Translations under genes and position numbers: made by a program
Shown here: piece after piece, positions 475 through 23,841 of the stretch
Layout: each line of letters starts with the position of its first letter
How positions within the stretch are numbered: position 1 is the stretch's first letter
From: Escherichia coli
Lineage (GTDB): Bacteria; Pseudomonadota; Gammaproteobacteria; Enterobacterales; Enterobacteriaceae
Reading direction: 5' to 3' (one strand)
DNA length: 64,000 nt
Assembly: GCF_013315695.1 (NCBI RefSeq)
Contig: NZ_CP054354.1
The notes under the pieces: generated by a model
The model's input: the letters and a program-made list of their open reading frames with translations, nothing else
Database searches by the model: none
Told to the model about the DNA's origin: nothing

Positions 475-1190
475 GCGCACGTTCACGGGCACTGATCCCC
501 CTCAGCGCAGAACAACAGGCCGCCATGCAGGCGGTGGCTGTCACAGAACAACGTCGTCGTCAGGGACGCACACTTTCAGCATGGCCTTATGCCACCGCTT
601 TCTTTCGCTGCCTGAATGGCAGTCGCCGGATTTCGCTGACCGATCTCCGCTTTTTTGCCCCTGCGCTGACGAAGGAGGAATTTCATGGCAACCGTCTCCT
701 GTGGCTGGCTGCCGTGGATAAACTGATTGAAAGTTTTGGGGAAGTCTGTGTTCTTCCCCTGCCATCCGATGCGGGGCACCGTCTGTTCCCGTCCGTGCCT
801 TTTCGTGAAGGTGAGCGTCGTCGTCAGAAAACCACGCTGACAGAGCAGAAATACAGCCGCCAGCGGGAACGTGAGGCAGAACGACGGGAACTGGAATACC
901 AGACATGTTTTGCTCAGGCGCAGATTGACCTTGCGTTTCATACTCCCGCCACGGTCGGAAGCTGGTTGTCCCGCTGGTCTGGTGTTGTTGAGGAGCATGA
1001 TCTGGAAACGATTTTCTGGGGGTGGTGCGGGCGTTTTCCATCACTGTCATCATTTGACCGGTTTTTCTGGCAGGAGGAACCACTCTGGCGGCTGATTTTT
1101 GAAGCCGGTGAGGCCGGTCGTGGTGCACCGGTACAGGTACGTGCACTTGAGCAGTGGATGATCCCGAACAAGCTGGAGAACGTAATATGA
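471..1190 (+). CDS. psiA: PsiA-like protein
   Basis: 239 aa (same length as F PsiA); translationally coupled to psiB; GGAGG 6 nt upstream of ATG 471. Confidence 0.55.
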
Positions 1191-1783
1191 TGAAATCAGA
1201 CGAAAAATACCAGGTTCCCGCGTGGATGCGACCTCTGTTGCCGTTGCTCTGCAACACCGGGGGGAACGATCCGGAAGAACTGCTGAATGATACAGAAACC
1301 ACTGCCAGTGCGAATGTTGTCCGTTATGTACTGATAGTTGCTGTGCGGTCGCAGGTTGATCTGCTGCAGCTTCTGTACAGGAAAGGGCTGTTGCGCACAG
1401 AGATACCAGGTGGCTTTTCACCGGAAGAAGCGCAGGCACTCCTGGATAATCTGGTGCGCAGCCATATCAGCAAGGCGCTGTCGGGCGAGCGAATGGCAGC
1501 CCGTGACAGAAATGCCGATCTGGCCTGGATTGGACAGCAACTGGTCGATGCCGCCTGGTTTGTCCGTGCCACACTGGAAGCGCATGGGATGAGCGTCGGA
1601 AATGAGAGTCCCCCTGCTCCGCCGGAGACAATGCCGGACATACAGACACGGGAACTGGTGATGTTGATCAAGCGACTGGCATCATCGCTGAAAGCGGTGA
1701 AACCGGACAGTTGTGTGGTGCGTGAAGCGCAGGACTGGCTGCGCGACAGAAAACTTGTGGATATCACAGATATTCTCCGGTGA
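1187..1783 (+). CDS. hypothetical leading-region protein
   Basis: ORF 1154..1783; likely start ATG 1187 (MMKSDEKYQ) after GGAGA; no recognisable motif. Confidence 0.45.
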   Translation: MMKSDEKYQVPAWMRPLLPLLCNTGGNDPEELLNDTETTASANVVRYVLIVAVRSQVDLLQLLYRKGLLRTEIPGGFSPEEAQALLDNLVRSHISKALSGERMAARDRNADLAWIGQQLVDAAWFVRATLEAHGMSVGNESPPAPPETMPDIQTRELVMLIKRLASSLKAVKPDSCVVREAQDWLRDRKLVDITDILR

Positions 1784-2244
1784 ACCAGGCATGTATATTT
1801 TACGCAGGGACATGCCGGTCATGATCGTTTCGTTCCAGGGGTGGTCTGGAGATCATGCGGTGTGCTCCCTGCTCTCGCCGGAATAAGGACGTCGCCGCCG
1901 GCTCCGCTTTTACCCGGCCATGCGGGGCATGGCCTTGTGGGTTTTCAGTTATGTGGCCGCCGTGTCGTGTGCGGGCTGTGCCGTGCCTCCATCGTAGCCG
2001 GGCTTCTGCGGGCGGGATGCAAGGTAAGATGAACCGCTGCGGTCACCCGGTCCCTCCTTCCCGTCTGCCGTGATTTTCCGGTCGTTCACCCGCTCAGATT
2101 TCGCGGTCTCACCCTCCAACTCCCGCCAGCCGTGTGCGTCAGGCTGCGGCTTCCCTTGCGCCCTTGCATCCCTGCAGGCCCGGCAAAGATGGAGGCACGG
2201 CACCGCCCGGTGTCGCAGAACATGTGACTATGGAGGATTCGGGA

Positions 2245-2745
2245 ATGTCTGTTGTTGCACCTGCTGTATACGTTGGAACCTGGCACAAATACAACTGTGG
2301 AAGCATCGCTGGCCGCTGGTTTGACCTGACAACGTTTGATGATGAACGCGACTTTTTCGCCGCCTGCCGTGCCCTTCACCAGGATGAAACCGACCCGGAA
2401 CTGATGTTTCAGGATTATGAGGGATTCCCGGGGAATATGGCCTCTGAATGCCATATCAACTGGGCCTGGGTTGAAGGCTTCCGCCAGGCGCGGGATGAAG
2501 GCTGCGAAGAGGCTTATCGTCTCTGGGTGGATGATACCGGTGAGACGGATTTTGACAGCTTCCGCGATGCCTGGTGGGGCGAGGCTGACAGTGAGGAGGC
2601 TTTTGCGGTTGAGTTCGTCAGTGATACCGGCCTGCTGGCTGACGTGCCGGAGACGGTGGCGCTCTATTTTGACTATGAGGCGTATGCGCGGGATTTATTC
2701 CTGGACTCCTTCACCTTTATTGACGGTCATGTGTTCCGTCGGTGA
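2245..2745 (+). CDS. ardA: ArdA-family antirestriction protein
   Basis: MSVVAPAVYVGTWHKYNCGSIAGRWF... and C-terminal YFDYEAYARDLFLDSFTFI match ArdA hallmark motifs; acidic; start chosen at ATG 2245 after GGAGG (ORF track start 2134 is probably an N-terminal over-extension). Confidence 0.8.
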   Translation: MSVVAPAVYVGTWHKYNCGSIAGRWFDLTTFDDERDFFAACRALHQDETDPELMFQDYEGFPGNMASECHINWAWVEGFRQARDEGCEEAYRLWVDDTGETDFDSFRDAWWGEADSEEAFAVEFVSDTGLLADVPETVALYFDYEAYARDLFLDSFTFIDGHVFRR

Positions 2746-3112
2746 TTTACTCCCCGCTCCGGCGGGGGGATGGCCTGCCAGGCCCCCGGAAAACCCTGGC
2801 AGGCTTACGCCTGCCTGAAATACAGGAGGGCCGCGCCTGCGGCGCTACCCTTCCTGCCTGTCATAGTGTGAGGCATTTTTCTGTTTTGTCGTTTCTGTTG
2901 TTCTGACTCCCGGGGGCGGGGACACCCTTCGGCTCCCGGCTGCCTGGCGGCATCCGGTCGTCAGGCCCGACTCCGACAGGCAGCTGCTGGCGCACCCGCC
3001 AGTCTCCGCCGAACCCGCTGGCGCGGTTTCGGGCTGCCGCTACGGTCCGATGTCTGAAAAACCAGGCTTGCAGCGACCGTTCCGGTCGCGCCGCCTCTGT
3101 CGCGCCGTGACC

Positions 3113-3433
3113 TGCGCTCCCTGCACACCTGACGGTGTGTAAGGAAACTGCGCCTGATGGCGCAGTTGTCTGCCCTTCCGCCGCCCCCCCTGCGGCCTGT
3201 TTCCCCGCTGTGGACTTTCCGGGGGCTGAAGCGGCCACAACACGTTTCAGCCGTCCAGGGGAGAGATGTACCAGCCACAAAACTTTTTGCCGCAAGCGTC
3301 AAAAACTTTTGCGTCTGCCCCCGGACAACTGCCCCGTGCCGTGGCAGTCGCTGCCCCATCGGAAAGGTCCACTGCGGGGAGAAACCCCGAAGAAGTGGAC
3401 GGCAGAAGGGGCTTTCGCCCCTCCGGGGGAGCA
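3113..3433. repeat. copy A of ~320-bp GC-rich noncoding repeat (candidate ssDNA promoter or leader element)
   Basis: High nucleotide identity by eye to 6481..6795; similarity does not respect reading frame (ORFs drawn in the two copies diverge after a shared MYQPQNFLPQASKTFASAPGQLPR); lies directly upstream of a + strand gene. Confidence 0.7.
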
Positions 3434-3477
3434 ACCGGTCGGCCCGGCGACCTGATTCAGCAGAAGGAGACGTTTTC

Positions 3478-3912
3478 ATGACAGTCAGCAGCACGATTTC
3501 CGTTTTTTGCCGCGACGGGGTGTTCCGTACCGTTTACTGCCACCTGCACGGTGAGCCGACCTGGAACGGTCGCATCCTGCATACCCACTATGCCACCGGT
3601 CAGCAGGCCGAAGCCCTGGTTGAACACGGTGATATCCGTTGCCTCGGTCCCCGTTGCGACAAACCCGCCGGGCATACGCTTCAGAACCCGGTGGACGGTG
3701 TGACGGCTTATTACGGACGTGACAGTGGTTTCCGGATGGACAGTGAGGCGCGTGAGTACCGTTCTTTCAGGGAGGCCATCGCCACGGAAAGCACTGAAGA
3801 GGTGCGCTTCCATTATGTGTTCATCGACGGCTACTGGAAGGTGATGTACCGCACGCCGGAAGGCTGGAAGATGAAAGCGCTCGCGCTGGCACTGCGTCGC
3901 TGTCCGGAATGA
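3478..3912 (+). CDS. hypothetical protein, 144 aa, Cys/His-containing
   Basis: Internal ATG 3478 of ORF 3157..3912 (MTVSSTISVF...); upstream part of the track ORF lies in repeat A; followed by a hairpin. Confidence 0.5.
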   Translation: MTVSSTISVFCRDGVFRTVYCHLHGEPTWNGRILHTHYATGQQAEALVEHGDIRCLGPRCDKPAGHTLQNPVDGVTAYYGRDSGFRMDSEAREYRSFREAIATESTEEVRFHYVFIDGYWKVMYRTPEGWKMKALALALRRCPE

Positions 3913-3917
3913 AAAAA

Positions 3918-3945
3918 AGCAGGGCGATAAACCCTGCCTTTCTCC
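3918..3945 (+). terminator. putative hairpin terminator
   Basis: agcaggg-cgataaa-ccctgc stem-loop followed by a T-rich tract, just after the stop at 3910-3912. Confidence 0.35.
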
Positions 3946-4004
3946 GCTGGCGCTTCCCCGTACGGAAGTCCGGCATCTCATTCACTAACTATGGAGATTA
4001 TGCC

Positions 4005-4271
4005 ATGAGACCATCAATTATCTTCGCAACCGCCGAGTATGTAAAGCGTCTGCGAGAAGAGTGCCTGCGGGAGAACAAACCCCTGCACCGCCATACCCGC
4101 TTCAGACGCCAGGAACTGGCACCGGATGAGATTAACCCGGACGTCCTGGCGATGGGCGGTCATATCGCCAGACGCTGCAGTGAGCAGAAGCGGGTACGTA
4201 TCCCCGCCATGAAAGTCAGCGAATGGGGCCACCTGCTCCGCGCGCTTGAAATTGAACGGGTCTGTCACTGA
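4005..4271 (+). CDS. hypothetical protein, 88 aa
   Basis: ATG 4005 with GGAGA 7 nt upstream (MRPSIIFATAEY...); ORF 3909..4271. Confidence 0.4.
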   Translation: MRPSIIFATAEYVKRLREECLRENKPLHRHTRFRRQELAPDEINPDVLAMGGHIARRCSEQKRVRIPAMKVSEWGHLLRALEIERVCH

Positions 4272-4447
4272 TTAACCCCTGCCGTCTGCCTGTGCAGGTG
4301 GCAGGATGTGTTCAGGTACTTTACCAGGAGGAACCGTGAGCAAGATGAAAAACATCACGACGTCTGTGTTGCATGGTGTCTCCACAAAAAACAGAAAAGG
4401 GAAACAGATTCTCTTTCATTCAGGGCCCGGGAGGGCTGGAGATAACA

Positions 4448-4837
4448 ATGAAGTCTTGTTTTGATACTGACAAAGCTTTTCATATGTCTTTTGATGAAGT
4501 CACTTTCAACGCTGACAGAATTCGCTCAAAACTGGAACTATTATCCGAAGAACTAATGCCCCGTTGTGGTCTTGTTTATGAGCTATATCAGCGACGTTTG
4601 AGTGCTGCTATTGATAATTTTGTGGCCACATTGCCGACAGAACAACATCTACTGGTCCTGGAACTGGCCCGTGAGGAGTTTGATTACCTTTCCGCAGAAG
4701 AGATTGCTGAAGAAATACGCCGTGACTCAGAACGCGGCTATTGTTGTCATGGCTTTGAACGCAATTGCTGTCCTCTCGGTTGTGGGGATTTGGGCGATGA
4801 TTGCTGCGATGCTGCTGATTTGATGGAGGAACCGTGA
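4448..4837 (+). CDS. acidic protein with Cys-rich C-terminus, 129 aa
   Basis: ATG 4448 after GGAG (MKSCFDTDKAF...); many D/E; C-terminal CCHGFERNCCPLGCGDLGDDCCDAAD; stop TGA overlaps GTG start of rpn (GTGA). Confidence 0.5.
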   Translation: MKSCFDTDKAFHMSFDEVTFNADRIRSKLELLSEELMPRCGLVYELYQRRLSAAIDNFVATLPTEQHLLVLELAREEFDYLSAEEIAEEIRRDSERGYCCHGFERNCCPLGCGDLGDDCCDAADLMEEP

Positions 4838-5748
4838 GTAAGAAGAAAAACACCACAACGCCCACGCCGCATGATGCCGCGTTCCGGTCGTTCCTGGCGA
4901 ATCCCGACGTCGCCAGAGATTTTCTGGAACTGCATCTTCCTGCGGAGTACCGGCAGTTGTGCGACCTGTCCACGCTGAAGCTGGAACCCGCCACCTTTGT
5001 AGAGCCGGACCTGCATCAGTACGCCAGCGATATCCTCTGGAGCGTGAAAACCACCGGGGGTGAAGACGGCTATGTTTATACGCTCATCGAGCACCAGAGC
5101 ACAGAAAATCTGTACATGCCTTTTCGCATGTTACGCTACAGTGTGGCGGCGATGCAGAGACATCTGGAGCAGCACAAAACGTTGCCACTGGTGATTCCGG
5201 TGCTGTTCTATCACGGTGAGCGCAGCCCGTACCCGTACAGCATGAACTGGCTGGACTGTTTTGAGAATCCGGCACTTGCGGCTAAAATATACACAAAACC
5301 GTTTCCGCTGGTTGATATCACTGTCGTTGATGACAATGAAATCATGAATCATCGCCGGATGGCCGCACTGACGCTGCTGATGAAGCATATCCGCCATCGT
5401 GACATGATGGAGCTGCTGGACAAACTCCCGCAGGTCATGGTGGAAATTTCAGACGAGCAGGTGCGTGTTCTGATTCATTACATCGTTAACGCAGGGGACT
5501 CTGTATCACCGGAATTTATGCGGGCGCTGGCTGAGCGTCTGCCGCAGCATGAGGATAAACTGATGACTATCGCAGAACGTCTTGAGCAAAAAGGTCGCCA
5601 GGAAGGCAGGATGGAAGGACGCATGGAAGGAGCGCTTGAAAAAGCCCTGGCTATTGCGTGCCAGCTTCAGAAAATGGGGATGACGCCGGAGCAGATTAAG
5701 CAGGCTACCGGACTTTCCGATGACGAACTGAAGAAAATCACTCACTGA
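4834..5748 (+). CDS. rpn: Rpn-family recombination-promoting nuclease (YhgA-like, PD-(D/E)xK)
   Basis: 304 aa; N-terminal and core match the Rpn/YhgA-like family; C-terminal tail MTIAERLEQKGRQEGRMEGRMEG...; GTG start after GGAGG. Confidence 0.75.
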   Translation: MSKKKNTTTPTPHDAAFRSFLANPDVARDFLELHLPAEYRQLCDLSTLKLEPATFVEPDLHQYASDILWSVKTTGGEDGYVYTLIEHQSTENLYMPFRMLRYSVAAMQRHLEQHKTLPLVIPVLFYHGERSPYPYSMNWLDCFENPALAAKIYTKPFPLVDITVVDDNEIMNHRRMAALTLLMKHIRHRDMMELLDKLPQVMVEISDEQVRVLIHYIVNAGDSVSPEFMRALAERLPQHEDKLMTIAERLEQKGRQEGRMEGRMEGALEKALAIACQLQKMGMTPEQIKQATGLSDDELKKITH

Positions 5749-5761
5749 TGAGAACCGCAAA

Positions 5762-5786
5762 GCCCGGCAAAATCCCGGGCTTTTTT
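5762..5786 (+). terminator. rho-independent terminator after rpn
   Basis: gcccgg-caaaatc-ccgggc stem-loop followed by TTTTTT. Confidence 0.65.
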
Positions 5787-5810
5787 GCCTGCAGGAGCAG
5801 AGCAAACAGC

Positions 5811-5981
5811 ATGACGATTGCAGAACGTCTTATACAGAAAGGTTTTGAAAAAGGTGCTCTTGAAGTGGCGCGGGAAATAGCCTGCCGGCTGCGGGATATG
5901 GGCTGGACGCCGGAACGGATTCAGGAGGCGACCGGACTTTCCGGTGAAGAACTGAAAAAGCTGTTTCCTGATGAGCAGTAG
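5811..5981 (+). CDS. standalone Rpn C-terminal-tail-like small protein (RpnS-like)
   Basis: 56 aa from ATG 5811: MTIAERLIQKGFEKGALEVAREIACRLRDMGWTPERIQEATGLSGEELKKL closely parallels the last ~60 aa of the upstream Rpn. Confidence 0.55.
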   Translation: MTIAERLIQKGFEKGALEVAREIACRLRDMGWTPERIQEATGLSGEELKKLFPDEQ

Positions 5982-6011
5982 CCTGGCATTCTGCCAGGCT
6001 GTGAATCACGC

Positions 6012-6263
6012 TCACACATCCTCTGCCGTTTCCCCCAGTTCATTTTCCAGTCGCCTGATGATATCTGCCTTACGCATCCCCTGCATGTGAGGCAGCAGGT
6101 CACGGACTGAAAGTGCCTGGGTGGTCCTCCAGACGGTGACATCCACCTGCTCCGCATTTTCCCAGGCGTGCCATGTTCTCTGTGTCACGCCAAATTCTCT
6201 GGCCGCTTTTTCGCGTGACCAGAGCATGCTTTTTCGCCAGATTCGCAGTTCCCAGCCGGTCAT
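6012..6263 (-). CDS. XRE-like helix-turn-helix regulator
   Basis: 83 aa; ...REKAAREFGVTQRTWHAWEN... resembles an HTH DNA-binding motif; AT-rich promoter region with palindromes upstream. Confidence 0.55.
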   Translation of the reverse strand: MTGWELRIWRKSMLWSREKAAREFGVTQRTWHAWENAEQVDVTVWRTTQALSVRDLLPHMQGMRKADIIRRLENELGETAEDV

Positions 6264-6277
6264 AAAATACCTTTTAA

Positions 6278-6298
6278 AAAGTGAAAAAACTTCACTTT
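6278..6298. promoter_or_regulatory. palindromic operator-like site AAAGTGAA-N5-TTCACTTT
   Basis: Perfect 8-bp inverted arms with 5-nt spacer, just upstream of the minus-strand HTH gene start. Confidence 0.4.
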
Positions 6299-6344
6299 AT
6301 TTTATCACCATAATCACCAAATCAGCGCGAAAAATAAATGTGAA

Positions 6345-6365
6345 AAAGTGAAGAAATTTCACTTT
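6345..6365. promoter_or_regulatory. second palindromic operator-like site AAAGTGAA-N5-TTCACTTT
   Basis: Same arms as 6278..6298, 67 bp away. Confidence 0.4.
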
Positions 6366-6480
6366 TTTTAGTTGTAGATGTCGTGCTGTTTTCTCTGTTT
6401 TCACCTGTGCGGGAGTGGGTGTCAGTGACCACCACATGCCATTGTTGTGCCGTCGTTTTTCTTCAGTCGCGCCGGATGCA

Positions 6481-6795
6481 GCGCTCCCTGCACACCTTAC
6501 GGTGTGTAAGGCCACTGCGCCTGATGGCGCAGCTGTCTCTGCCTGTCTGCCGCCGCACTGCGGCCTGTTCTCCGCAGACGGACTTTCCGGGGAACATACA
6601 CGACCACATCCCGTTTCAGTTATCCAGGGGAGAGATGTACCAGCCACAAAACTTTTTGCCGCAGGCGTCAAAAACTTTTGCGTCTGCCCCCGGACAACTG
6701 CCCCGTGACGTGGTGAGCATCCCCCGTCGGAAAGGTCCACTGCGGGGAAATCCCCGAAGACCCGGACGGCAGAAGGAGCTTCGCTCCTCCGGGAA
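6481..6795. repeat. copy B of ~320-bp GC-rich noncoding repeat
   Basis: See copy A; lies directly upstream of the gene starting at 6841. Confidence 0.7.
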
Positions 6796-6840
6796 ATGAC
6801 CTGGCTGACCCGGCAGTCGTGACGATGAGGAGACAATGTG

Positions 6841-7689
6841 ATGAATCAGACTTTACCCACTGCTGACCTGAATACTGCCGGCACGACAGATGTTATTCCG
6901 TCTGTAGCTATCGACCGCATCATCGCGCAGCGTAACGAAGGTATTGCACTGTTCATGCAGGCGATGGAATGCCTGGCGACAGCGCGCAAGATTCTGCTCG
7001 ATGCGTCAGGTGATATTTTTCTTTACGGGTTTGAAGACTGCGTGACTGATTCCGTTCGTCGCATGGATAAGACGGAAGAAGCGAAAAGGAATATCACCCG
7101 TCTTGCCGACCGGAAAATCTGGGACCGCCTGATGACAGATACGGGCATGTACACCTTCATGAGTTCATGCCAGCGTGATGAGTGGAACAGCCAGCTGATG
7201 AGCGACACCTGTCCTGAAATCACCCTGGACAATGTACTGGCAACATTCCGCCATCTTAATGCCAGCAAGATGCAGACGTTTGAACAGGGGCTGATTGATG
7301 TCTACCGGAAATTGTCATGGGATTACAGAACCAATAATCCCTGCCGTCTGGGTAAGAAAATCATTATTGAAAACCTACTGTACCGCTGGAGTAACGGGCG
7401 TGTGACGCTGGACTGCAGCGGACGGGAGGCACTGGATGACCTGGTACGTCCGTTTTATCTGCTGGAGGGGCGCAACGTTCCTGACTTCAGGAACAGCATC
7501 GGGGCGCAGTATGGTGAATTTCTCGGGAACGGTGACAATGTCGGTAAGCTGTTAGAAGGGGAATATTTTACGGTGCGTGGCTACCAGAAAGGGACCGTAC
7601 ACATTGTCTTTAAGCGTTCTGACCTTGTTGAAAAACTGAATGATATTATTGCACGGCATTATCCTGGTGCATTGCCGCCACGAGTCTGA
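6841..7689 (+). CDS. hypothetical leading-region protein, ~282 aa
   Basis: ORF 6838..7689; ATG 6841 with GAGGAG 8 nt upstream; no recognisable motif. Confidence 0.55.
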   Translation: MNQTLPTADLNTAGTTDVIPSVAIDRIIAQRNEGIALFMQAMECLATARKILLDASGDIFLYGFEDCVTDSVRRMDKTEEAKRNITRLADRKIWDRLMTDTGMYTFMSSCQRDEWNSQLMSDTCPEITLDNVLATFRHLNASKMQTFEQGLIDVYRKLSWDYRTNNPCRLGKKIIIENLLYRWSNGRVTLDCSGREALDDLVRPFYLLEGRNVPDFRNSIGAQYGEFLGNGDNVGKLLEGEYFTVRGYQKGTVHIVFKRSDLVEKLNDIIARHYPGALPPRV

Positions 7690-7755
7690 TTAAACAGAAA
7701 AGCCCAGGTATTTATGCCGGGGCTTTTTTTTCTGTAATCATCATAATCTCAGAAC

Positions 7756-7774
7756 ACAATGTGACATTGTCACA
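7756..7774. promoter_or_regulatory. overlapping perfect palindromes ACAATGT-G-ACATTGT / TGTGACA-T-TGTCACA
   Basis: Read directly from sequence between two convergent genes. Confidence 0.3.
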
Positions 7775-8110
7775 TCAATTGTTGTTCATATCGATGCCAT
7801 CTTTCCTGCCTGAATCTGTCTTTTTAGGTGCTGTTTTAGAGGAAGAACGGCGGGATGGTTTTTTCGATTCTGCTTCCCGAATAATGTCACGAAGTGCTTT
7901 CTCTCCTACTTCATATCCTGCATTTTTGAGCGTGTCACGAACATCTGTCAGTGTATAACCCTTTGTCCTTACCAGGATAATGATGTCATCACGAATGGCA
8001 TCAAGAAAATCACGCAATGTTTTCCGTTGAGCGGTGAGGTCTGGCAATTCCGATAAAGCAGCTTTTGCCAGCTGGATGTCATCATCTGAGTAAAATTTTT
8101 TAGACGCCAT
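7775..8110 (-). CDS. hypothetical basic protein next to oriT, possibly DNA-binding
   Basis: ORF 7775..8116; ATG at 8110 with GGAGA upstream; Lys/Arg-rich C-terminus; divergent from nikA. Confidence 0.45.
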   Translation of the reverse strand: MASKKFYSDDDIQLAKAALSELPDLTAQRKTLRDFLDAIRDDIIILVRTKGYTLTDVRDTLKNAGYEVGEKALRDIIREAESKKPSRRSSSKTAPKKTDSGRKDGIDMNNN

Positions 8111-8116
8111 TGGCAC

Positions 8117-8342
8117 TTTCTCTCCGTTTAATGTTGAAGCCTGATTTTATCATCAAAAACTGCCTCCTGGCAGGGCTGCGCCCTGCCTCTGCCGTCTGCA
8201 TAAGACTATGATGCACAAAAATAACAGGCTATAATGGACTGAAAAACGGGACAGGATGTGTAATCGTATAACCGCGCACGCACGGCTATACGATTACCAC
8301 CTGGTCAGGGCTTAGCCCCGACACCCCGGTAAGGAGCAGACC
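8117..8342. other. candidate origin of transfer (oriT)
   Basis: Intergenic region upstream of nikA; perfect 11-bp inverted repeat GTAATCGTATA (8260..8270) / TATACGATTAC (8287..8297); on the minus strand the repeat is followed 2 nt later by ATCCTG (8252..8258), resembling the MobP nick motif ATCCTG|C; second inverted repeat CAGGGC-TGC-GCCCTG nearby. Confidence 0.55.
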
Positions 8343-8675
8343 ATGAGTGAGAAGAAAACCCGAAGTGGCAGTGAGAAACGGCAAAAGAATGTCCTCATTG
8401 CTGTTCGTTTTTCACCAGAAGAGGCTGAGATTGTTAAAGAAAAGGCAGAAAAAAACGGACTGACAGTTTCAACTCTGATAAGAAAAACTGTGCTGGGAAA
8501 ACAGATAAATGCCCGCATTGACGAAGATTTTTTGAAAGAGCTGATGCGTCTTGGTCGCCTGCAGAAGCATCTGTTTGTGGAAGGAAAACGCACGGGAGAT
8601 AAAGAGTATGCAGAGGTTCTCGTTGCTATTACAGAGCTTGCTAATACTCTGCGAAGAAATTTAATGGGACGCTGA
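8343..8675 (+). CDS. nikA: NikA-like relaxosome accessory protein (ribbon-helix-helix)
   Basis: 110 aa, same size as R64 NikA; AGGAG RBS; directly upstream of the relaxase. Confidence 0.65.
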   Translation: MSEKKTRSGSEKRQKNVLIAVRFSPEEAEIVKEKAEKNGLTVSTLIRKTVLGKQINARIDEDFLKELMRLGRLQKHLFVEGKRTGDKEYAEVLVAITELANTLRRNLMGR

Positions 8676-8686
8676 GATAATCGCTG

Positions 8687-11407
8687 ATGAATGCCATCAT
8701 TCCGAAAAAAAGACGTGACGGAAAGTCTTCTTTTGAAGACCTGATTGCGTACACCTCAGTGCGGGATGATGTGCCGGAAGATGAACTCAGGCCTGACACG
8801 GAAATGAAAGCTGAGATTCCGCACCGGAACCGCTTCAGACGTCTTGTTGATTATGCAACACGTCTGCGTAATGAAAAATTTGTTTCCCTGATTGATGTGA
8901 TGAAAGACGGCAGTCAGTGGGTGAATTTCTATGGTGTGACCTGCTTTCATAACTGTTTGTCTCTTGAATCTGCGGCTGAAGAAATGCAGAAAGCAGCAGA
9001 GCTTGCTCATTTTTCCAAAGATGATACAGACCCTGTTTTTCACTATATTCTCTCCTGGCCTGCGCACGAAAGTCCGCGTTCTGAGCAGCTTTTTGACTGT
9101 GTGCGTCACACCCTGAAATCCCTTGAGCTGTCAAAACATCAGTATGTGGCAGCCGTTCATACAGACACGGATAACCTGCATGTACATGTTGCAGTGAATC
9201 GTGTCCACCCTGAAACCGGCTATATCAATTGCCTTCCGTGGAGCCAGGAAAAACTCAGTCGTGCATGCCGTGAACTTGAACTTAAGCACGGATTCGCGCC
9301 GGATAATGGTTGCTTTGTACATGCACCGGGCAATCGTATTGTGCGCAAAACAGCGCTGGTACGTGAGCGCCGTAATGCCTGGCGACGCGGGAAAAAGCAG
9401 ACGTTCAGGGAATATATTGATCAGATGTCGATTGCCGGGCTGCGTGAAGAGCCAGCACAGGACTGGTTATCTTTGCATAAACGGCTGGCCAGTGATGGTC
9501 TGTATATCACGATGCAGGAAGGGGAACTGGTGGTGAAGGATGGCTGGGACAAAGCGCGGGAAGGTATTGCACTCAGTTCGTTCGGACCGTCATGGACAGC
9601 TGAAAAACTGGGGCGGAAACTGGGGGAATATCAGCCTGTACCGACAGATATTTTCAGTCAGGTGGGGACACCCGGTCGTTATGATCCGGAAGCCATAAAC
9701 GTTGATATCCGGCCGGAAAAAGTGGCAGAAACGGAGAGTCTGAAACAGTACGCCTGCCGTCATTTTGCCGAACGCTTACTGGCAATGGCGCGCAATGGTG
9801 AACTGAAAAGCTGCCTGGCTGTACACCGTACTCTGGCAGAGGCGGGATTATGGATGGGGATTCAACACGGGCATCTGGTACTGCATGATGGATTTGATAA
9901 ACAACAGACACCAGTACGTGCAGACAGTGTGTGGCCGTTAATGACGCTGGATTACATGCAGGATCTGGATGGTGGATGGCAGCCTGTACCGAAGGATATT
10001 TTTACTCAGGTCGTTCCCGGAGAACGATTCCGGGGACACAGTATTGGCTCTCAGCCTGTCAGTGATTACGAATGGTATCGCATGAGGATGGGCACAGGTC
10101 CGCAGGGGGCTATAAAGCGTGAACTGTTTTCTGATAAGGAAAGTCTGTGGGGATACGGCCTTATTCAGTGCAGGAGCCTGATTGAAGAGATGATAGCTGA
10201 CGGGGATTTCAGCTGGCAGGCATGTCATGAGATGTTTGCACGTAAAGGGCTTATGCTGCAGAAACAGCATCATGGTCTTGTGATTGTGGATGCGTTTAAT
10301 CATGAGCTGACACCGGTGAAGGCCAGCAGTATCCATCCTGATTTGACGTTATCCCGTGCCGAGCCTCAGGCCGGGCCATTTGAAATTGCGGCTGCAGATA
10401 TTTTCGAACGGGTGAAGCCTGAATGTCGTTACAATCCGGAACTTGCTGCCAGTGATGAAGTGGAACCCGGCTTCCGGCGCGATCCTGAGATTCGTCGTGA
10501 GCGCCGTGAAGCCCGTGCAGCTGCGCGGGAAGATTTGCGTGCGCGTTATCTTGCATGGAAGGAGCACTGGCGTAAACCCGACTTACGTTACGGAGAACGG
10601 TTACGGGAAATTCATGCTGCCTGCCGTCGGCGCAAGGCGTATATCCGTGTGCAGTTCCGGGATCCACAATTGCGTAAGCTGCATTACCATATTGCGGAAG
10701 TGCAGCGTATGCAGGCGCTGATCAGGCTGAAGGAGAGTGTGAAGGAAGAGCGGTTGTCACTGATTGCGGAGGGTAAGTGGTATCCTTTGTCCTACCGGCA
10801 GTGGGTGGAACAACAGGCGGCTCAGGGAGACAGGGCTGCAGTATCGCAGTTACGTGGCTGGGATTATCGTGATCGTCGCTCGCGTAATAAGGATAAAAGA
10901 CGCACAACTAATGTTGATCGTTGTGTCGTACTCTGCGAACCCGGAGGAACGCCACTTTTTAATAATGTTGCAAAACTTGAAGCTCGTCTTCAGAAAAATG
11001 GAAGTGTTCATTTCAGGGATACGCGGACAGGAAAAAATGTCTGTACGGATTACGGAGATCGGGTTGTTTTCTACCATCACACGGACCGAAATGAACTGGC
11101 AGAGAAGCTTGATTTAATTGCGCCAGTTCTGTTCAGCCGCAACGGAAAGCTTGGTTTTGAGCCGGAAGGTTCATACCAGCAGTTTAATGATGTGTTTGCA
11201 GAAATGGTGGCCTGGCACAATGCAGCGGGAATAACCGGAAACGGACACTTCACCATTACTCGTCCGGACGTGGATTTGCACCGTCAACGCAGTGAGCAGT
11301 ATTACCGGGAATATATCAGACAGCAGACCCGTTTATCGGAGAGCCATGATGATAATTATACGTTACGGCAGGAGAAAACATGGGAGCCACCATCACCTGG
11401 AATGTAA
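8687..11407 (+). CDS. nikB: NikB-like MobP-family relaxase
   Basis: 906 aa; HTDTDNLHVHVAVNRV fits the relaxase HxDxxxxHxHxxxN histidine motif; size close to R64 NikB. Confidence 0.75.
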   Translation: MNAIIPKKRRDGKSSFEDLIAYTSVRDDVPEDELRPDTEMKAEIPHRNRFRRLVDYATRLRNEKFVSLIDVMKDGSQWVNFYGVTCFHNCLSLESAAEEMQKAAELAHFSKDDTDPVFHYILSWPAHESPRSEQLFDCVRHTLKSLELSKHQYVAAVHTDTDNLHVHVAVNRVHPETGYINCLPWSQEKLSRACRELELKHGFAPDNGCFVHAPGNRIVRKTALVRERRNAWRRGKKQTFREYIDQMSIAGLREEPAQDWLSLHKRLASDGLYITMQEGELVVKDGWDKAREGIALSSFGPSWTAEKLGRKLGEYQPVPTDIFSQVGTPGRYDPEAINVDIRPEKVAETESLKQYACRHFAERLLAMARNGELKSCLAVHRTLAEAGLWMGIQHGHLVLHDGFDKQQTPVRADSVWPLMTLDYMQDLDGGWQPVPKDIFTQVVPGERFRGHSIGSQPVSDYEWYRMRMGTGPQGAIKRELFSDKESLWGYGLIQCRSLIEEMIADGDFSWQACHEMFARKGLMLQKQHHGLVIVDAFNHELTPVKASSIHPDLTLSRAEPQAGPFEIAAADIFERVKPECRYNPELAASDEVEPGFRRDPEIRRERREARAAAREDLRARYLAWKEHWRKPDLRYGERLREIHAACRRRKAYIRVQFRDPQLRKLHYHIAEVQRMQALIRLKESVKEERLSLIAEGKWYPLSYRQWVEQQAAQGDRAAVSQLRGWDYRDRRSRNKDKRRTTNVDRCVVLCEPGGTPLFNNVAKLEARLQKNGSVHFRDTRTGKNVCTDYGDRVVFYHHTDRNELAEKLDLIAPVLFSRNGKLGFEPEGSYQQFNDVFAEMVAWHNAAGITGNGHFTITRPDVDLHRQRSEQYYREYIRQQTRLSESHDDNYTLRQEKTWEPPSPGM

Positions 11408-11515
11408 GCCCGGATAAGTGATGGTGCAAAGATTCAGCCCAAAAACGGCAGGAATCTTCGTCAATAAGGGCGGGAGTAGTCACTGAATTGAGTTTATACC
11501 CGGTTAACTCTGAAT

Positions 11516-11539
11516 TAAGGGCCGTGTCTGCGGCCCTTA
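11516..11539. terminator. hairpin between convergent nikB and trbC
   Basis: Perfect 9-bp stem TAAGGGCCG / CGGCCCTTA with 6-nt loop. Confidence 0.5.
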
Positions 11540-11627
11540 TCCAGTGCGCCGTAAAACCCCGGACTTAGTGAACAGGGTTTTACAGTCTGATTGACAGATA
11601 TGGTCACCAGAAAATATTTGTATTCCT

Positions 11628-13928
11628 TCAGTATTTTTCGTCAGTTGTTGGTTGTGCTCCACATGATTTCTGGGGATGATCATTATTTATTGTCTTCGAT
11701 TTATTATTTTCAGCGACCGGTAACAGTATCTCCAGGGGGAGCAGGGTATTCAGAATCGCCTTCACTGAAGGTATATCTTCAGGACCGGAGTGTTCCTCTT
11801 CCGGACGATTCAGTGTGATATAACATACCCGGCGTTCTTCCCTGGTTGTGTTATTGATAGTGTGCACAGCCTTTTTCCACAGTTCGTTTGCCCGGGATTC
11901 GATATCTGTATCATATTGCGGAAGCAGATCCAGTGATGTCTGCGCTGTTGCCAACCGGCGCTGGAATGTATCAATGATACGGTAAGGCTCTGTACGGTTT
12001 TTACGACGTTTACGGGATGGTTTTGCTGTCAGTACACCGATGATGCTGCTGACATGCTCCGGTGTGGGGAGCCTGCGCTGCACTGTCCTGGGGACGAGAC
12101 GGCGGAGACGCTCCAGCCGGGGGGCTTCAACGGAAATATAGCGGTTGATGACCACCGGATCACTGTCGCAACTTTTCTCGCTGTCCGGAATATACACAGA
12201 GGCTGACGGCACCACATCCCCCTGGAAAACGGTAAAGAACTCACCGGCATTCAGTCTGATCAAATCCTGCACGTCGATTTTGCTTTCCATCTGGATGGTG
12301 ATCTGGTTACCGTCCACCCAGGACTCACCCATCACACCATCGTGGCGCTGCAGGCTGCCCATTCTGGCCCGTGCCTCTTCACCGGCGGCATTTTTCACCG
12401 TTCTTGCCGTTTTGTCGTCACTGACAATGCGTCCGGCGAATTTGGTGCCGGCGTTCTGCATCAGTGTGGCGGTGTTGGTGGCGGAGGTCTGCCCTTCAAT
12501 TCGCTCCTGATCCTGCGCCATCATTATCAGGGAAAACTCCAGTGAACGTACCTGGGTGGCCTCCACAGCAATGCGGTCTGTGTAGTAGGCACCGACTTCG
12601 TCAAGGATACAGATATAGGGGAAGCTGCCTTTGTATTTTTTGACTTCCAGGGTCTGTGCATCTGTGCCTTCCAGGCGGTAGCCCAGGTCACGGGCGAGGA
12701 GCATGCTCTGCTGGGTGACGAACATACGACCGAGTGCCGACGTGGTATGGGCCGATGTGTCCAGTGCAGGGATCATCACAATCAGAATGCGGTCGCTGTG
12801 AATACTGTCGCGAATATCGATATCGCCGGCATCTGCCGCAAAGACGTCCCCGAAGGTTTCGGCAAAGGTTGTGAACGTTTCCGAGAACTGACCGGAGAGA
12901 TAAGCATGCTGTTTACGGGGCTCCTCAGTCCAGGCTGACGGCGTTCTCACCAGTGACATATCGAATCCCGGGACATCCTGCAGGTAGTTTCGCAGTGGTG
13001 CGATAGCTTCTTCCGGCCACTGGTCATCAAGGCCACGGCAATAGAGTTTTGCCATCCCTTCCAGCGTCATATGTTCCCGTAACATCTGCAGGGACATGGT
13101 TTTACCTTCCCGGACGCACCAGAATTTTGTGCCAAAGACCAGGGCTTTGTTCATGGCTATCGCCCGTGACTGCCATTCACCGCCCTGAACGTTCTGGGGC
13201 AGCATGGACTGCATGGTTTCGGCGGTGAAGGCTTCGGTGCTGAATGCGAACGGGTTCCAGGTGTTTGACTGTGGGCGGGATTTATCGCCACTCTGAATGA
13301 CTTCACTGCGGGATTTTCCGCCGTTCATGAAGTTGATGACTTCGATATCATCCTCCCTGCCAAAACGTCGGGAGAGATACCAGATTGTCCTCGTGGTATC
13401 GTTCTGTGCCTTGCCGTCAACAAAGGTAAAGCCTCTTCCCCAGCAGAGCGGGTTGAGCAGCCAGGCAAAGGTGGTTTCTGTTTTACCGCCACCGGTGGTG
13501 GCAAAAAACATGACATGCCGGGTGAGGTCATCCATGCTCAGCCAGAGTTCGCGACCGATATCGTTGATACGGCGGTAACCGACATAAAAAATCCCCCGGG
13601 CGGGGAATGTTTCATCCGCTTCATACTGAAACAGGGTGGGCCAGAAGCTGAAGAGGCTTCTCCTGACCTTTCTGTCCTGGGAGGGGTCATCAAGGCTGAG
13701 TGTCATGGGCATACGCAGGGGGCATCGCCAGCGTTGCAGCATGAATATCACGGAGGTGACCAGGGTGAACAGCAGGCAGACAGGAAGGGCCAGTGGCCAT
13801 ATCAGCGCCGTAATGATACTGCCGGCCAGACACAGACCAGTGATGTTCAGGTTATGCAGTGCATTCCACAACGGGTTTCCCCAGGCCGTGCGGTGTATGA
13901 GGTCAGGATTAACGTGGTGCTGGCTCAT
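11628..13928 (-). CDS. trbC: TrbC-like type IV coupling protein (DotL/IcmO-like)
   Basis: 766 aa; N-terminal TM segments; Walker A FATTGGGKTE; size and position match R64 TrbC. Confidence 0.75.
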   Translation of the reverse strand: MSQHHVNPDLIHRTAWGNPLWNALHNLNITGLCLAGSIITALIWPLALPVCLLFTLVTSVIFMLQRWRCPLRMPMTLSLDDPSQDRKVRRSLFSFWPTLFQYEADETFPARGIFYVGYRRINDIGRELWLSMDDLTRHVMFFATTGGGKTETTFAWLLNPLCWGRGFTFVDGKAQNDTTRTIWYLSRRFGREDDIEVINFMNGGKSRSEVIQSGDKSRPQSNTWNPFAFSTEAFTAETMQSMLPQNVQGGEWQSRAIAMNKALVFGTKFWCVREGKTMSLQMLREHMTLEGMAKLYCRGLDDQWPEEAIAPLRNYLQDVPGFDMSLVRTPSAWTEEPRKQHAYLSGQFSETFTTFAETFGDVFAADAGDIDIRDSIHSDRILIVMIPALDTSAHTTSALGRMFVTQQSMLLARDLGYRLEGTDAQTLEVKKYKGSFPYICILDEVGAYYTDRIAVEATQVRSLEFSLIMMAQDQERIEGQTSATNTATLMQNAGTKFAGRIVSDDKTARTVKNAAGEEARARMGSLQRHDGVMGESWVDGNQITIQMESKIDVQDLIRLNAGEFFTVFQGDVVPSASVYIPDSEKSCDSDPVVINRYISVEAPRLERLRRLVPRTVQRRLPTPEHVSSIIGVLTAKPSRKRRKNRTEPYRIIDTFQRRLATAQTSLDLLPQYDTDIESRANELWKKAVHTINNTTREERRVCYITLNRPEEEHSGPEDIPSVKAILNTLLPLEILLPVAENNKSKTINNDHPQKSCGAQPTTDEKY

Positions 13929-15033
13929 TGTGATACTCCTCGCTATCTGTTGCTTTCAGGAAGAGGCGAACGGAAGTGGCGTCTTTCAGGATGCCGGACG
14001 GCAGGTGCCAGCCGGTATCTGATAACACCCAGGGGGTTCCGCCAAAACCGAACTGGCGGAAAGCCTGGTTATTGACATCGATGGCAGCACGTGCGGCGGT
14101 CAGACACTGTCCATCCTGTGCGGCCGGTGCATCGCCGGTGGGGGCCATACCACTGTCAGCGGAATACAGCTGATGCCATCCGGTCGCCCGTTTTTGTGAG
14201 TCCGGTTCACACAGCAGCGGAGCAGTCCGCTTTGTACTGGACTCCCCGCCAATCACGGAGACCGGATAAATCACCACGCTGAATTCCCGGGCCAGTTGCT
14301 TAAGCGCGGGTTCCAGCAGACGGCAGTTGATGCATGCGGGGTCAAGGAAGGCGTACAGCGTGCGTTCATGACCAGTGGACAGGTTAATGGTGAACATCCC
14401 CCGGTCTGCGTTGCGTTTAAGTACTGTGGCCAGATTACGGCGGGCCTCAGCGGCCTGAACGTGTTGTTCTTCCGTCACTGCCGTCGGGGCGGGGGCAGAA
14501 GAAGGTTCCTGCTGTGTGGGAGCCGGGCGGACCGGGATGCTGTTAACATGATGTTCCGTATGTGGGCGTGGTGTCTCTGTGTCGGTTACTGGTTCAGCTC
14601 TCCATTCCTGAGATGTAGGGTAAGCCAGCGTGGAAGGGGACTCTGCCTTCATCCAGTGGTAACCTGCAACTGTCGCCGGCAGAGCAATTCCGGCGATAAA
14701 GCCACACATCAGTGTCCGCCAGAAGCCATTTTTCCGGGAGGGATGTTTTCCTTTTCCGGCATATTCGGCATCCAGGCAGGCATCAATCGCTGAGAGCATT
14801 CTGCCGATGTGATGTCCGGGACGTTCTGCATCAACGGTATCAACAAGCACCGTTTCGGTTATTTCGCGAAAAGGGGAACTGAAGGACAGGTGCATCAGCC
14901 TGTTATTACGGTTAATCAGTGCGCCCAGTTCTGTGACTGGCAGGATGGCAATCACCTCCCGATTACCGTCAGGGTACAGGGCGGTCAGGGACAGGTGTTT
15001 ATTATTCAGTGTTGCAGTGTAGTGGATGGTCAT
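13909..15033 (-). CDS. trbB: TrbB-like thioredoxin-fold (DsbC-like) protein
   Basis: 374 aa; CxxC motif in FLDPACINC; start overlaps trbA stop (ATGA). Confidence 0.6.
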   Translation of the reverse strand: MTIHYTATLNNKHLSLTALYPDGNREVIAILPVTELGALINRNNRLMHLSFSSPFREITETVLVDTVDAERPGHHIGRMLSAIDACLDAEYAGKGKHPSRKNGFWRTLMCGFIAGIALPATVAGYHWMKAESPSTLAYPTSQEWRAEPVTDTETPRPHTEHHVNSIPVRPAPTQQEPSSAPAPTAVTEEQHVQAAEARRNLATVLKRNADRGMFTINLSTGHERTLYAFLDPACINCRLLEPALKQLAREFSVVIYPVSVIGGESSTKRTAPLLCEPDSQKRATGWHQLYSADSGMAPTGDAPAAQDGQCLTAARAAIDVNNQAFRQFGFGGTPWVLSDTGWHLPSGILKDATSVRLFLKATDSEEYHNEPAPR

Positions 15034-16373
15034 TGTTCTTTTTCCTTGTCGGCGGGATGCTGTTTTTCGGTGGTTTCGGTGGTTTCGGTGGTTTCGGTGG
15101 TTTCGGTGGTTTCGGTGGTTTCGGTGGTTTCGGTGGTTTCGGTGGTTTCGGTGGTTTCACCAGTGTCAGTGTCTTCGTCGTTATCATGGCGGCGGGGTAT
15201 CACGTCATCCGTGAGTGACCAGCGGGTTCTGATCTGACGTTTACGATCGCGATCTGGCTGAGGTTCGTCCCATATCAGGCCCAGCCCCAGCATGTCCCGT
15301 CGAAGCCCTTCAATGGCCTCTTCCACACAGGGTTCCGGGCAGGGGAGGCCGAGACGGCTGGCTTCATTTTCTGCCCGGGCAACGGCCACCACGCCGGCCC
15401 CTTCGATGAAGCCTTTTGTGGTGTTTGCCCGGTGAAGGGCATAGAAGAGCGTCCGGTCAACGCCCTTGAGCCACAGCCAGTTGGGGGGCGTCAGGCGCAA
15501 ATCATGTGCGTAAAGCCAGACCAGACCGCTGCGAACGTAACGGTGCTGCCTGAGCCACTGTTGTGCACCTTCTGTTTTTATGACCCGGATAAAGGCGTTT
15601 CTGGCCAGTGAATACACTGGCGTGCTGAAACGCCCCTGGTCCCGCTTGCTTTTGAGTCTGCAGGAGAGGTTGAGGTTATTCATCAGGGAAACAGCCGCTT
15701 TCCGGTCCCCGAGGAAGAACTGCAGGCCAAAGACGGCAAAGAGCGCTTTTTCATGTGGAGCCATGTCTTTCCAGGTGGTCAGAGGCTGGCCCAGCTGCGC
15801 CATAAAGCGCTGGCGCGTGGCCGCAACATCGAGCTGCATGTTGCGGATAAGGTTGTTCTGCGCCACAAAGACTTCCGGGGTTAGAGCGACACGGCGCTCG
15901 GGACGTTTTTGTCCGTGGAAGAGTCTGTTGCTGTCTCCGTCAGCCAGAACGGGGGCGATCGCCGGTGACAGTGATGAAAACAGATGTGGCAGCGTGTGGA
16001 TATTCAGTGGTCTGCGGGTGAAGCGGGGCTGGGCCGGATGCTGAAACCACATCCACAGAAAGCCGATCGTCATGGGAAGCAGAATCAGCCAGAGGATCCC
16101 CACGGTCTGTGACATGACATCCAGCCACTGGCTGAAAGTGATCGTTGCAGCGTTGTTGGCGGTGTTGGCCAGCAGGTTATAACGGGGGGCGGCAAAATGG
16201 TGAAAAGGCCCCCAGTCAGTCATCCCCCACATTGTGTGCAGGATCAGGCAGGTGGCAAAGACGATGTCGGGTAAAAAGAGCCAGATGAGAAGCGCAAAGA
16301 GCAGACATATGGTGCCAACGATATACCATATGTTCATCGGGTCTTCTGTTGTGGGGGAGTGTTGGTAAGACAC
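15030..16373 (-). CDS. trbA: TrbA-like protein (DotM/IcmP-like) with C-terminal (TTE)n repeat
   Basis: 447 aa; N-terminal TM segments; gene order trbA-trbB-trbC as in R64. Confidence 0.55.
   Translation of the reverse strand: MSYQHSPTTEDPMNIWYIVGTICLLFALLIWLFLPDIVFATCLILHTMWGMTDWGPFHHFAAPRYNLLANTANNAATITFSQWLDVMSQTVGILWLILLPMTIGFLWMWFQHPAQPRFTRRPLNIHTLPHLFSSLSPAIAPVLADGDSNRLFHGQKRPERRVALTPEVFVAQNNLIRNMQLDVAATRQRFMAQLGQPLTTWKDMAPHEKALFAVFGLQFFLGDRKAAVSLMNNLNLSCRLKSKRDQGRFSTPVYSLARNAFIRVIKTEGAQQWLRQHRYVRSGLVWLYAHDLRLTPPNWLWLKGVDRTLFYALHRANTTKGFIEGAGVVAVARAENEASRLGLPCPEPCVEEAIEGLRRDMLGLGLIWDEPQPDRDRKRQIRTRWSLTDDVIPRRHDNDEDTDTGETTETTETTETTETTETTETTETTETTETTEKQHPADKEKEQ
15063..15160. repeat. 9-bp tandem repeat (GGTTTCGGT unit, about 10 copies) inside the trbA 3' end
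   Basis: Direct tandem array in sequence; in-frame, encodes TETTETTE... on the minus strand. Confidence 0.9.
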
Positions 16374-16515
16374 GAGGATTCCTCCATCGATAAATAGATA
16401 AATTTCGGGATGAGGCTGAGTGGAATTAATGCGAACAATCGCCGGTAATGACCGGGCAGGGCTGAATTCAGCAGGGCATTTTCACAGGAACAACAGAAGG
16501 TGGTGAGAGACAGGC

Positions 16516-16547
16516 ACAAAAAAGCCGACTGGTGAGGCCGGCTTTTT
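16516..16547. terminator. bidirectional terminator-like hairpin flanked by A- and T-runs
   Basis: aaaaaagccgactggtgaggccggctttttt; near-identical copy at 17246..17277. Confidence 0.5.
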
Positions 16548-16909
16548 TGCGATCCCAGGGAGAGTGGGTGGCTCTGGCCCGGAGGAAGTCTCTTTTCAAC
16601 TAACGTTACCAGAATATCGTTATATTCACCTGATCGCAATCTGTTCGTTACAGTCTATTGTTCCGGGAGTAGCGATATCGCCTGAAACAAGTATAATCAG
16701 CAAGTTAGCCTTGTCTGGAGACTTACCTTCGCATCAATCCATCGGGACTATGGATCTGTGCTATTCAAAGACCTGGGCGGACAAACAGGTGGTGCTGCGT
16801 CTGGTGCTCTGGCCGGAGGAAGTCTCTTTTCAGCTAACAATGAAAGAGCTGTTGTGACAGGCAATGTAAGAGTAAACAACAGTGATTTCCTCCATTGATG
16901 GAGAAACGG

Positions 16910-17005: not shown

Positions 17006-17026
17006 TAATCCCGGAAACGTACTTAA

Positions 17027-17056
17027 GGGCAGAGGGTCACCGCCCTCTGCCCTTTA
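17027..17056 (+). terminator. rho-independent terminator
   Basis: Perfect 10-bp stem GGGCAGAGGG / CCCTCTGCCC, loop TCACCG, then TTT. Confidence 0.65.
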
Positions 17057-17245
17057 ATAATCTACGGACAGATTACTTTCTGTACTTCCAGAGCCTGTTT
17101 CTGTGAGTCAAACATGAGCTGGTTTTTACCGACTACACCCAAGTAAATATATTCGATATCTCCCATTTGCCGTATTTTCGTAAAATTCAACAGGAAATAT
17201 TCAACGGGAGTGAGAGAACTGCTGTCCGGGGAGGAGGTACAGACG

Positions 17246-17277
17246 CAAAAAAACCGACTGGTGAGGCCGGTTTTTTT
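17246..17277. terminator. bidirectional terminator-like hairpin (copy 2)
   Basis: aaaaaaaccgactggtgaggccggttttttt. Confidence 0.5.
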
Positions 17278-23789: not shown

Positions 23790-23800
23790 AATAAACCTCC

Positions 23801-23841
23801 ATATTCACCTGAATGTATTTTAATCTCTTCAGGTGAATATG
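23801..23841 (-). promoter_or_regulatory. perfect 13-bp inverted repeat between traY and excA
   Basis: ATATTCACCTGAA ... TTCAGGTGAATAT with 15-nt loop, just upstream of the excA RBS. Confidence 0.4.

Follow-up and report, generated by a model that had tools for sequence, protein, structure and literature searches.

The transfer origins of R64-type plasmids have been dissected experimentally since 1991, the year in which Furuya and Komano reportedly placed the R64 nick at G|T, 8 bp from a 17-bp repeat. The primary papers on R64 by these authors (1991, 1997, 2000 and 2003) are said to give limits of 44 bp and 92 bp for its oriT. The core of this origin consists of the nick region and of repeat A, the NikA-binding site (PMC4743918), and it was found that initiation of transfer needs the inner arm of the repeat while termination needs the whole repeat (PMC5863519). 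In IncZ and IncB plasmids, the minimal oriT lies next to nikA and is composed of a 17-bp and an 8-bp pair of repeats, of which the 8-bp pair is the same as in R64 whereas the long pair is not, 'as may be expected' from the difference in NikA (PMC3817090). Plasmids that carry such origins can be mobilised in trans: pEC156 is mobilised by R64 via an R64-type oriT (PMC4743918) and the oriT-only plasmid pBuzz by the B/O plasmid p838B-R (PMC9282650; PMC11389934). The type of oriT discussed here is already known, the R64-type family and its B/O and Z variant being in print.

The IncP plasmid RP4/RK2 (TraJ-TraI) has an origin with the core ATCCTG, which is cut behind its G, and with an inverted repeat that lies a few bases to the 5' side on the nicked strand and whose proximal arm is bound by an accessory protein (PMC3772185). 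The locus analysed here has the same architecture. In RP4 the nick is followed by C (TATCCTG|C), as opposed to T at this locus, the repeats and the accessory protein of RP4 are not known to be related in sequence to those found here, and the relaxases fall in different MOBP subclades.

A probable oriT of the B/O type upstream of nikA

The locus belongs to a 64-kb stretch of Escherichia coli DNA, the whole of which is referred to as the window. The region upstream of nikA had been proposed to contain an oriT in a sequence-only reading of this DNA, and a base-for-base alignment with the nick region and inverted repeats of R64 (NC_005014, region upstream of nikA) bears this out. We consider it highly probable (roughly 94%) that a segment at about 8243-8334 is the conjugative oriT of an IncB/O-type plasmid of the I-complex and works like the oriT of R64 (IncI1), and nothing that was observed speaks against it. 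What settles the case for an oriT is homology and conservation, not the hexamer ATCCTG or the repeat alone. The interval originally singled out, 8117..8342, is indeed the intergenic interval upstream of nikA, bounded by a minus-strand gene (7775-8110) on one side and nikA (8343-8675) on the other, but the oriT itself probably occupies only its right part, the left half more likely being made up of promoters.

With R64 and ColIb-P9 (IncI1, NikA-NikB, MOBP), the window shares the nick block, the 8-nt spacing of the repeat from the predicted nick on the same strand, the short repeat and the layout of the leading region, as well as its place immediately before nikA-nikB and a divergent yggA-like gene. 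It has every trait that defines the R64-type oriT family at the sequence level, in a B/O variant. The repeat A specific to IncI1 (GCAATTGTAATACCGTC) is not the one found, the window having GTAATCGTATAACCG in its place together with a different N-terminal strand in NikA, and the site is thus filed as a B/O-type variant of the I-complex family rather than as an IncI1 oriT. The known B/O- and Z-type oriTs (p3521, pO26-CRL125, pO111-CRL115 and p838B-R) answer to the same description and show no real difference from the site, p3521 and p838B-R being compared by description only.

The oriT is directly upstream of nikA-nikB, and trbC, trbB and trbA come next on the opposite strand. NikA (8343..8675, plus strand, 110 aa) is a ribbon-helix-helix relaxosome accessory protein (NCBIfam MobA equivalog, 111 bits) that is 67% identical to R64 NikA and matches the solved NikA N-terminal domain 2BA3. 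NikB (8687..11407, plus strand, 906 aa) is a MOBP relaxase (NCBIfam TraI/MobA(P), 409.7 bits against a cut-off of 250) whose full length aligns with R64 NikB at 72% identity, with Tyr22 and the His-rich motif HTDTDNLHVHV both conserved between the window and R64. These findings bear on the idea that the site is an inactive relic, conserved in sequence while it is no longer used or while transfer proceeds from another site. Some of the records that carry the region are typed mobilizable or non-mobilizable, which would fit such an idea, but nikA and nikB are intact and full length, trbA, trbB and trbC are next to them, closely matching records are typed conjugative, all the positions that are invariant in the family are kept and the 12-mer nick block described below occurs just once in 64 kb. 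We therefore hold a relic to be very improbable.

The nick region

The nick region of the window (8247..8259) reads 5'-ACATCCTG|TCCCG-3' on the minus strand and is identical to that of R64. Conservation was assessed in an alignment of 15 oriTs that included the window, R64, the I-gamma/K1, K2/Z and B/O types, an IncL/M-like MPF_I plasmid and six small plasmids without a relaxase gene (1.5-7.6 kb). The nick block of the family, the plus-strand 12-mer GGACAGGATGTG (8249-8260), has a single occurrence in the 64-kb window, is identical in R64 and is kept in 14 of these 15 oriTs, the IncL/M-like member showing one substitution. A 14-mer, CGGGACAGGATGTG, is likewise the same in the window and R64 in this alignment.

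On the minus strand, 8250-8257 reads CATCCTGT, in line with the form (C/T)ATCCTG(C/T) that characterises the nick region of R64-type oriTs. The hexamer ATCCTG itself occupies 8252-8257 and is separated from the long repeat by two bases (8258-8259). It had been described as ending at 8258, which is off by one, while the hexamer, its strand and its spacing from the repeat were all as described. The hexamer is followed on its 3' side by a T, the base opposite A8251, which gives the motif CATCCTG|T. A MobP core ATCCTG|C had been invoked, and the site does fit the MOBP consensus, albeit with this T instead of C after the nick. Nic is predicted between 8252 and 8251 on the minus strand, with the G that faces C8252 on one side and the T that faces A8251 on the other; the prediction follows from homology with the mapped nick of R64 and from the data reported for that plasmid. 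Eight bases (8259-8252) would thus lie between the long repeat and the nick, with the repeat on the 5' side of the nick on the minus strand. The MOBP nick consensus, (C/T)ATCCTG(C/T), has been compiled from sources among which is the paper on the R64 nick site (PMC3772185).

By itself the hexamer carries no information. The window has 77 copies of ATCCTG, about twice the 37 predicted by dinucleotide shuffles, and 24 copies of the 8-mer YATCCTGY. The excess is likely caused by the codon pair ATC-CTG, which is common in coding DNA, and by its complement. Such a number of copies is a warning against any prediction of a nick site from the hexamer alone.

The long inverted repeat

The perfect 11-bp inverted repeat that had been claimed within 8260..8297 is present, as GTAATCGTATA (8260-8270) and TATACGATTAC (8287-8297), both on reading the sequence and in the output of a repeat finder. 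When it is lengthened, the arms become 8260-8274 and 8283-8297, i.e. 15 bp with one mismatch, the repeat finder itself giving 18 nt at 89%. The nick-proximal arm, GTAATCGTATAACCG (8260..8274), is the counterpart of 'repeat A' of R64, the NikA-binding arm, and the distal arm is CGGCTATACGATTAC (8283..8297). At their single mismatch, A faces C on the plus strand whereas the minus strand has a G.T wobble.

A search for perfect inverted repeats with arms of 11 bp or more and loops of up to 40 gave five places in the 64-kb window, compared with a shuffle mean of 0.49. The long repeat taken by itself is thus unusual, not unique, and is suggestive rather than decisive. The other four, all with short loops, are at 16517-16549, 17025-17054, 17244-17280 and 23799-23842; the third of them overlaps an Rfam match to AgrB antisense RNA (17245-17332), beside dqlB toxin genes. 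An intrinsic terminator was considered for the repeat next to the nick region and rejected, as neither strand has a T-run after the repeat and a terminator scan was empty there.

The R64 repeat, GCAATTGTAATACCGTC / GACGCTATTACAATTGC, has 17 bp with one mismatch, whereas the repeat of the window has 15 bp with one mismatch at the same position, and the two differ by compensated substitutions and by a 1-nt indel in each arm. The block CTGGTCAGGGCTT.GCCCCGACACCCC to its right, which holds the short repeat, is almost unchanged from R64 (two differences in 40 columns). Across the 15 aligned oriTs, the nick block and the short-repeat block are nearly invariant while the long repeat is variable. Its variation is constrained: six of the nine outer pairs have changed on both sides in a compensatory fashion, and pairing is preserved in 93% of the cells in the long repeat and in 89% over the whole structure. 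The latter value falls to 30-44% when the partner is slid by one to three columns, and the covariation score was reached by none of 500 shuffles.

These results decide against the notion that a repeat and a hexamer have come to be adjacent by chance and are without function. In favour of this notion are the 77 copies of ATCCTG and 24 of YATCCTGY, as well as the approximately 0.5 perfect 11-bp inverted repeats expected per window. However, more than 4000 plasmid records have kept the entire 90-bp arrangement, its place in the window is exactly in front of the relaxase operon, and the repeat has undergone compensatory changes. Chance adjacency, to which we would give the lowest probability of all the alternatives weighed here, is already refuted by homology with R64, conservation and covariation.

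A pattern of this kind is the signature of a protein-binding arm that must also pair with its partner arm, and the N-terminus of NikA varies with it. The N-terminal β-strand reads VLIAVRF in the window, VVRTLRF in R64, ILRAVRF in I-gamma and VKFTARF in K2/Z; each type of N-terminal segment goes with its own repeat arm, while the C-terminal half of NikA is conserved. NikA specificity appears to be set by the long repeat. Given a repeat of 15 rather than 17 bp and a different DNA-reading segment in NikA (VLIAVRF in the window, VVRTLRF in R64), cross-recognition with R64 proteins is not assured. The K2/Z-type repeat in the sample, GGGAATGTCGGACCG, is a variant other than that of the window. In two small plasmids, pSCU-488-4 (1591 bp) and p2017.06.05CC_5 (7559 bp), the proximal arm is exactly of the window type and the distal arm shows three and one differences, respectively.

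The short inverted repeat and the extent of the origin

A second inverted repeat of 8 bp sits between the long repeat and nikA, as it does in R64-type oriTs. It consists of GTCAGGGC-TTA-GCCCCGAC (8304..8322; arms 8304-8311 and 8315-8322, eight pairs), forms a hairpin in the minus-strand fold and is part of the conserved block CTGGTCAGGGC...CCCCGACACCC, which is nearly invariant in the 15 oriTs, including those of the small relaxase-less plasmids. In all 15 sequences, one of the eight pairs is an A.C mismatch when read on the plus strand and a G.T wobble when read on the minus. In the published description, the 8-bp pair of repeats is inside the minimal R64-type oriT that adjoins nikA, from which we infer that the repeat at 8304-8322 is the same element (PMC3817090). 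A different 8-bp repeat at 8169-8187 was also considered for this role and dropped, because both sets of repeats have been placed within about 85 bp next to nikA (PMC3817090); moreover, it is outside the core of the small oriT-only plasmids and is broken in R64.

Small plasmids without a relaxase gene have only 8243-8328 in common with the window. It follows that the working oriT would span about 8243-8334, with minus-strand nicking, and not the whole intergenic region; its extent as given here takes in the nick region and both inverted repeats. Orphan R64-type oriTs (pEC156, pBuzz and the nikA-only pCERC7/NTP16 group) share the same core of 82-86 bp. These orphan copies lack a relaxase and are mobilised in trans, in contrast to the site in the window, which is the parental origin with its own nikAB.

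Transferred strand and leading region

Along the minus strand, the elements come in the order short repeat, long repeat, 8 nt and nick. Such an order is canonical where a relaxase, on closing the transferred strand, recognises a hairpin to the 5' side of the site that it cleaves. Folding of the minus strand yields both hairpins at -26.2 kcal/mol (z -6.5), compared with -22.6 kcal/mol (z -4.0) for the plus strand, and the mismatches of both repeats are G.T wobbles on the minus strand only.

A minus-strand nick at 8252/8251 would leave its 5' end at 8251, so that the lower coordinates would leave first and nikAB last. The sequence-only reading had argued that psiB and ardA would enter the recipient first and nikAB last, and the layout agrees with it. 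Three leading-region genes are found at low coordinates, all on the plus strand: psiB (40-474; NCBIfam PsiB, 266 bits), psiA (471-1190; NCBIfam PsiA, 376 bits) and ardA (2245-2745; 96% identical to R64 ArdA). The incoming minus strand would therefore be their template. Along the transferred strand, this leading region is 3' of the nick and the relaxase genes come last. The annotation of the near-identical record NZ_CP146671.1 agrees with these leading-region genes. A leading-region layout of this logic, with the relaxosome genes on the lagging side of oriT, has been described (PMC11541004).

The leading region also contains two direct repeats of about 250 bp (3096-3344 and 6463-6713), 87-93% alike, which are upstream of the plus-strand genes 3478-3912 and 6841-7689, respectively. 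On the minus strand, each of them has a long hairpin with TTGACG and a z of about -6. They look like single-strand promoters of the Frpo/ssi type on the transferred strand.

By homology with R64, the following sequence of events can be proposed. NikA would bind the nick-proximal arm (8260-8274) in double-stranded DNA and help the relaxase to load. NikB would then cut the minus strand at CATCCTG|T (8252/8251, 8 nt from the repeat) and stay covalently bound to the 5' end. The minus strand would be unwound and exported 5' to 3', beginning with the yggA-like gene and continuing with the Frpo-like elements, ardA, psiA and psiB, with nikAB at the very end. After one round, the transferred strand would have both inverted repeats immediately before the nick on its 5' side, folded as hairpins, by which NikB would recognise the restored site and reseal the strand. 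In this scheme, the long repeat would provide the NikA specificity, having co-diverged with the N-terminal β-strand of NikA, while the nick block and the short repeat would be family-wide elements.

Promoters and control of nikAB

The left half of the intergenic interval has features of another kind. A perfect -10 element, TATAAT, with a weak -35 is found on the plus strand at 8230..8235, within a stretch (8181-8235) that is identical to R64. It is a candidate for the nikAB promoter, on weak evidence, and its transcript would cross oriT. A scan for consensus promoters called no plus-strand nikAB promoter, the element at 8230-8235 being missed owing to its weak -35. On the minus strand there is a promoter-like site, CTGCCA-18-TAAAAT with TG (8144..8173), which overlaps the perfect 8-bp inverted repeat GGCAGGGC/GCCCTGCC detected by the repeat finder (8169-8176/8180-8187). 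This is the repeat that is broken in R64, by a 1-nt deletion, and absent from the small oriT-only plasmids. The segment 8144-8187 is possibly a promoter/operator of the yggA-like gene and not a part of oriT proper.

That divergent gene (7775..8110, minus strand) encodes a protein of 111 aa that shares 96% identity with its positional counterpart in R64 and for which profile searches returned no significant Pfam domain and no NCBIfam family. In some public records it is named 'molybdopterin-guanine dinucleotide biosynthesis protein MobC', apparently by mis-annotation. In pCTX-M3, Orf35 is a homologue of R64 YggA, and deletion of orf35 led to a 40-fold and a 23-fold rise in nikA and nikB transcripts, respectively, and to an increase of more than 200-fold in mobilisation (PMC6112013). 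If the gene at 7775-8110 is taken to be this YggA, it is possibly a repressor of nikAB.

A quite different role can be envisaged for the long inverted repeat, namely that it is mainly a transcriptional operator through which NikA represses its own nikAB operon, and not a recognition element of oriT. This would be consistent with the position of TATAAT (8230-8235) just upstream, as the nikAB transcript would begin near the nick region and cross the repeat, and with the ribbon-helix-helix fold of NikA, which is common in repressors (weak matches include the RelB antitoxin and a TraJ regulator). Repression of nikAB is also known from pCTX-M3, though by Orf35/YggA (PMC6112013). Against it, small plasmids devoid of nikA, nikB or any such promoter keep the long repeat along with the other two elements, the nick block and the short repeat, which makes sense only if the repeat is a cis-acting transfer site, and copies of R64-type oriTs render plasmids mobilisable (PMC4743918). 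We regard this operator-only role as very improbable, a little less so than a relic. An operator role could exist beside the oriT role, not in its place, and recognition of the repeat as part of oriT is the reading that we retain.

Distribution among plasmids

The 226-bp intergenic interval has matches in 2163 plasmid records, nearly all of which come from Escherichia, Salmonella and Shigella and are typed MOBP / MPF_I. Of these, 25 reach an identity of 99% or more, 204 fall at 95-99% and 1849 at 90-95%. Among 5426 complete E. coli genomes, 1409 have plasmids with a match. A more sensitive search with the 96-bp core retrieved 4091 plasmid records, of which about 1700 are typed mobilizable, many of them small; the core is 100% identical in NZ_CP023387.1. 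The mobilizable typing of small plasmids with this core, like the mobilisation of pBuzz by a B/O plasmid and of pEC156 by R64, lends indirect support to nicking and mobilisation at the predicted origin. The nearest whole record is NZ_CP146671.1, an 86-kb conjugative plasmid typed IncI1/B/O whose identity to the first 25 kb of the window amounts to 99.3%. This identity, together with an Rfam match to the repZ pseudoknot of I-complex replicons (63840-63988), identifies the window as an I-complex plasmid of the B/O type. Rfam also reports a sok antitoxin RNA (20832-20988) beside a Hok/Gef gene, sok and repZ being expected features of a plasmid backbone.

The discovery value of the site is small, since R64-type oriTs are well dissected and near-identical copies are found in thousands of deposited plasmids. 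There is nevertheless some use for annotation. Rfam has no match in the oriT region. The public plasmid and genome records that match the region have no oriT annotation at the site, a gap that would be filled by exact positions of the nick block and of the two repeats and by knowledge of the strand that is transferred. These data would also help to predict which small relaxase-less plasmids can be mobilised by a B/O-type plasmid, given the apparent role of the long repeat in NikA specificity.

The window is about 95-98% identical to R64 over 800-8260, save for a few indels, and identity drops to about 60-75% over 8261-16400, from the start of the long repeat through nikA, nikB and trbCBA; the switch can be placed only to within the invariant nick block. 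It is tempting to see the oriT as a recombination joint at which an I1-like leading region was brought together with a B/O-type transfer module by relaxase-catalysed exchange from oriT to oriT between different I-complex plasmids, but we consider this a tentative idea and, on balance, an unlikely one. Ordinary homologous recombination in conserved DNA would explain the step in identity at oriT, and so would unequal evolutionary rates of the two modules.

An arrangement of oriTs with mixed arms was seen in CP093083.1, a 2117-bp Salmonella plasmid without a relaxase gene, in which two copies of oriT (985-1066 and 1201-1286) are in inverse orientation, as in pBuzz. One copy has an R64-type repeat. 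The other combines an I-gamma-like nick-proximal arm, GCAATTGTATAACCG, with a distal arm like that of the window, CGGCTATACGATTAC, leaving two mismatches between the arms, and this mixed-arm oriT may be a related footprint of exchange between origins.
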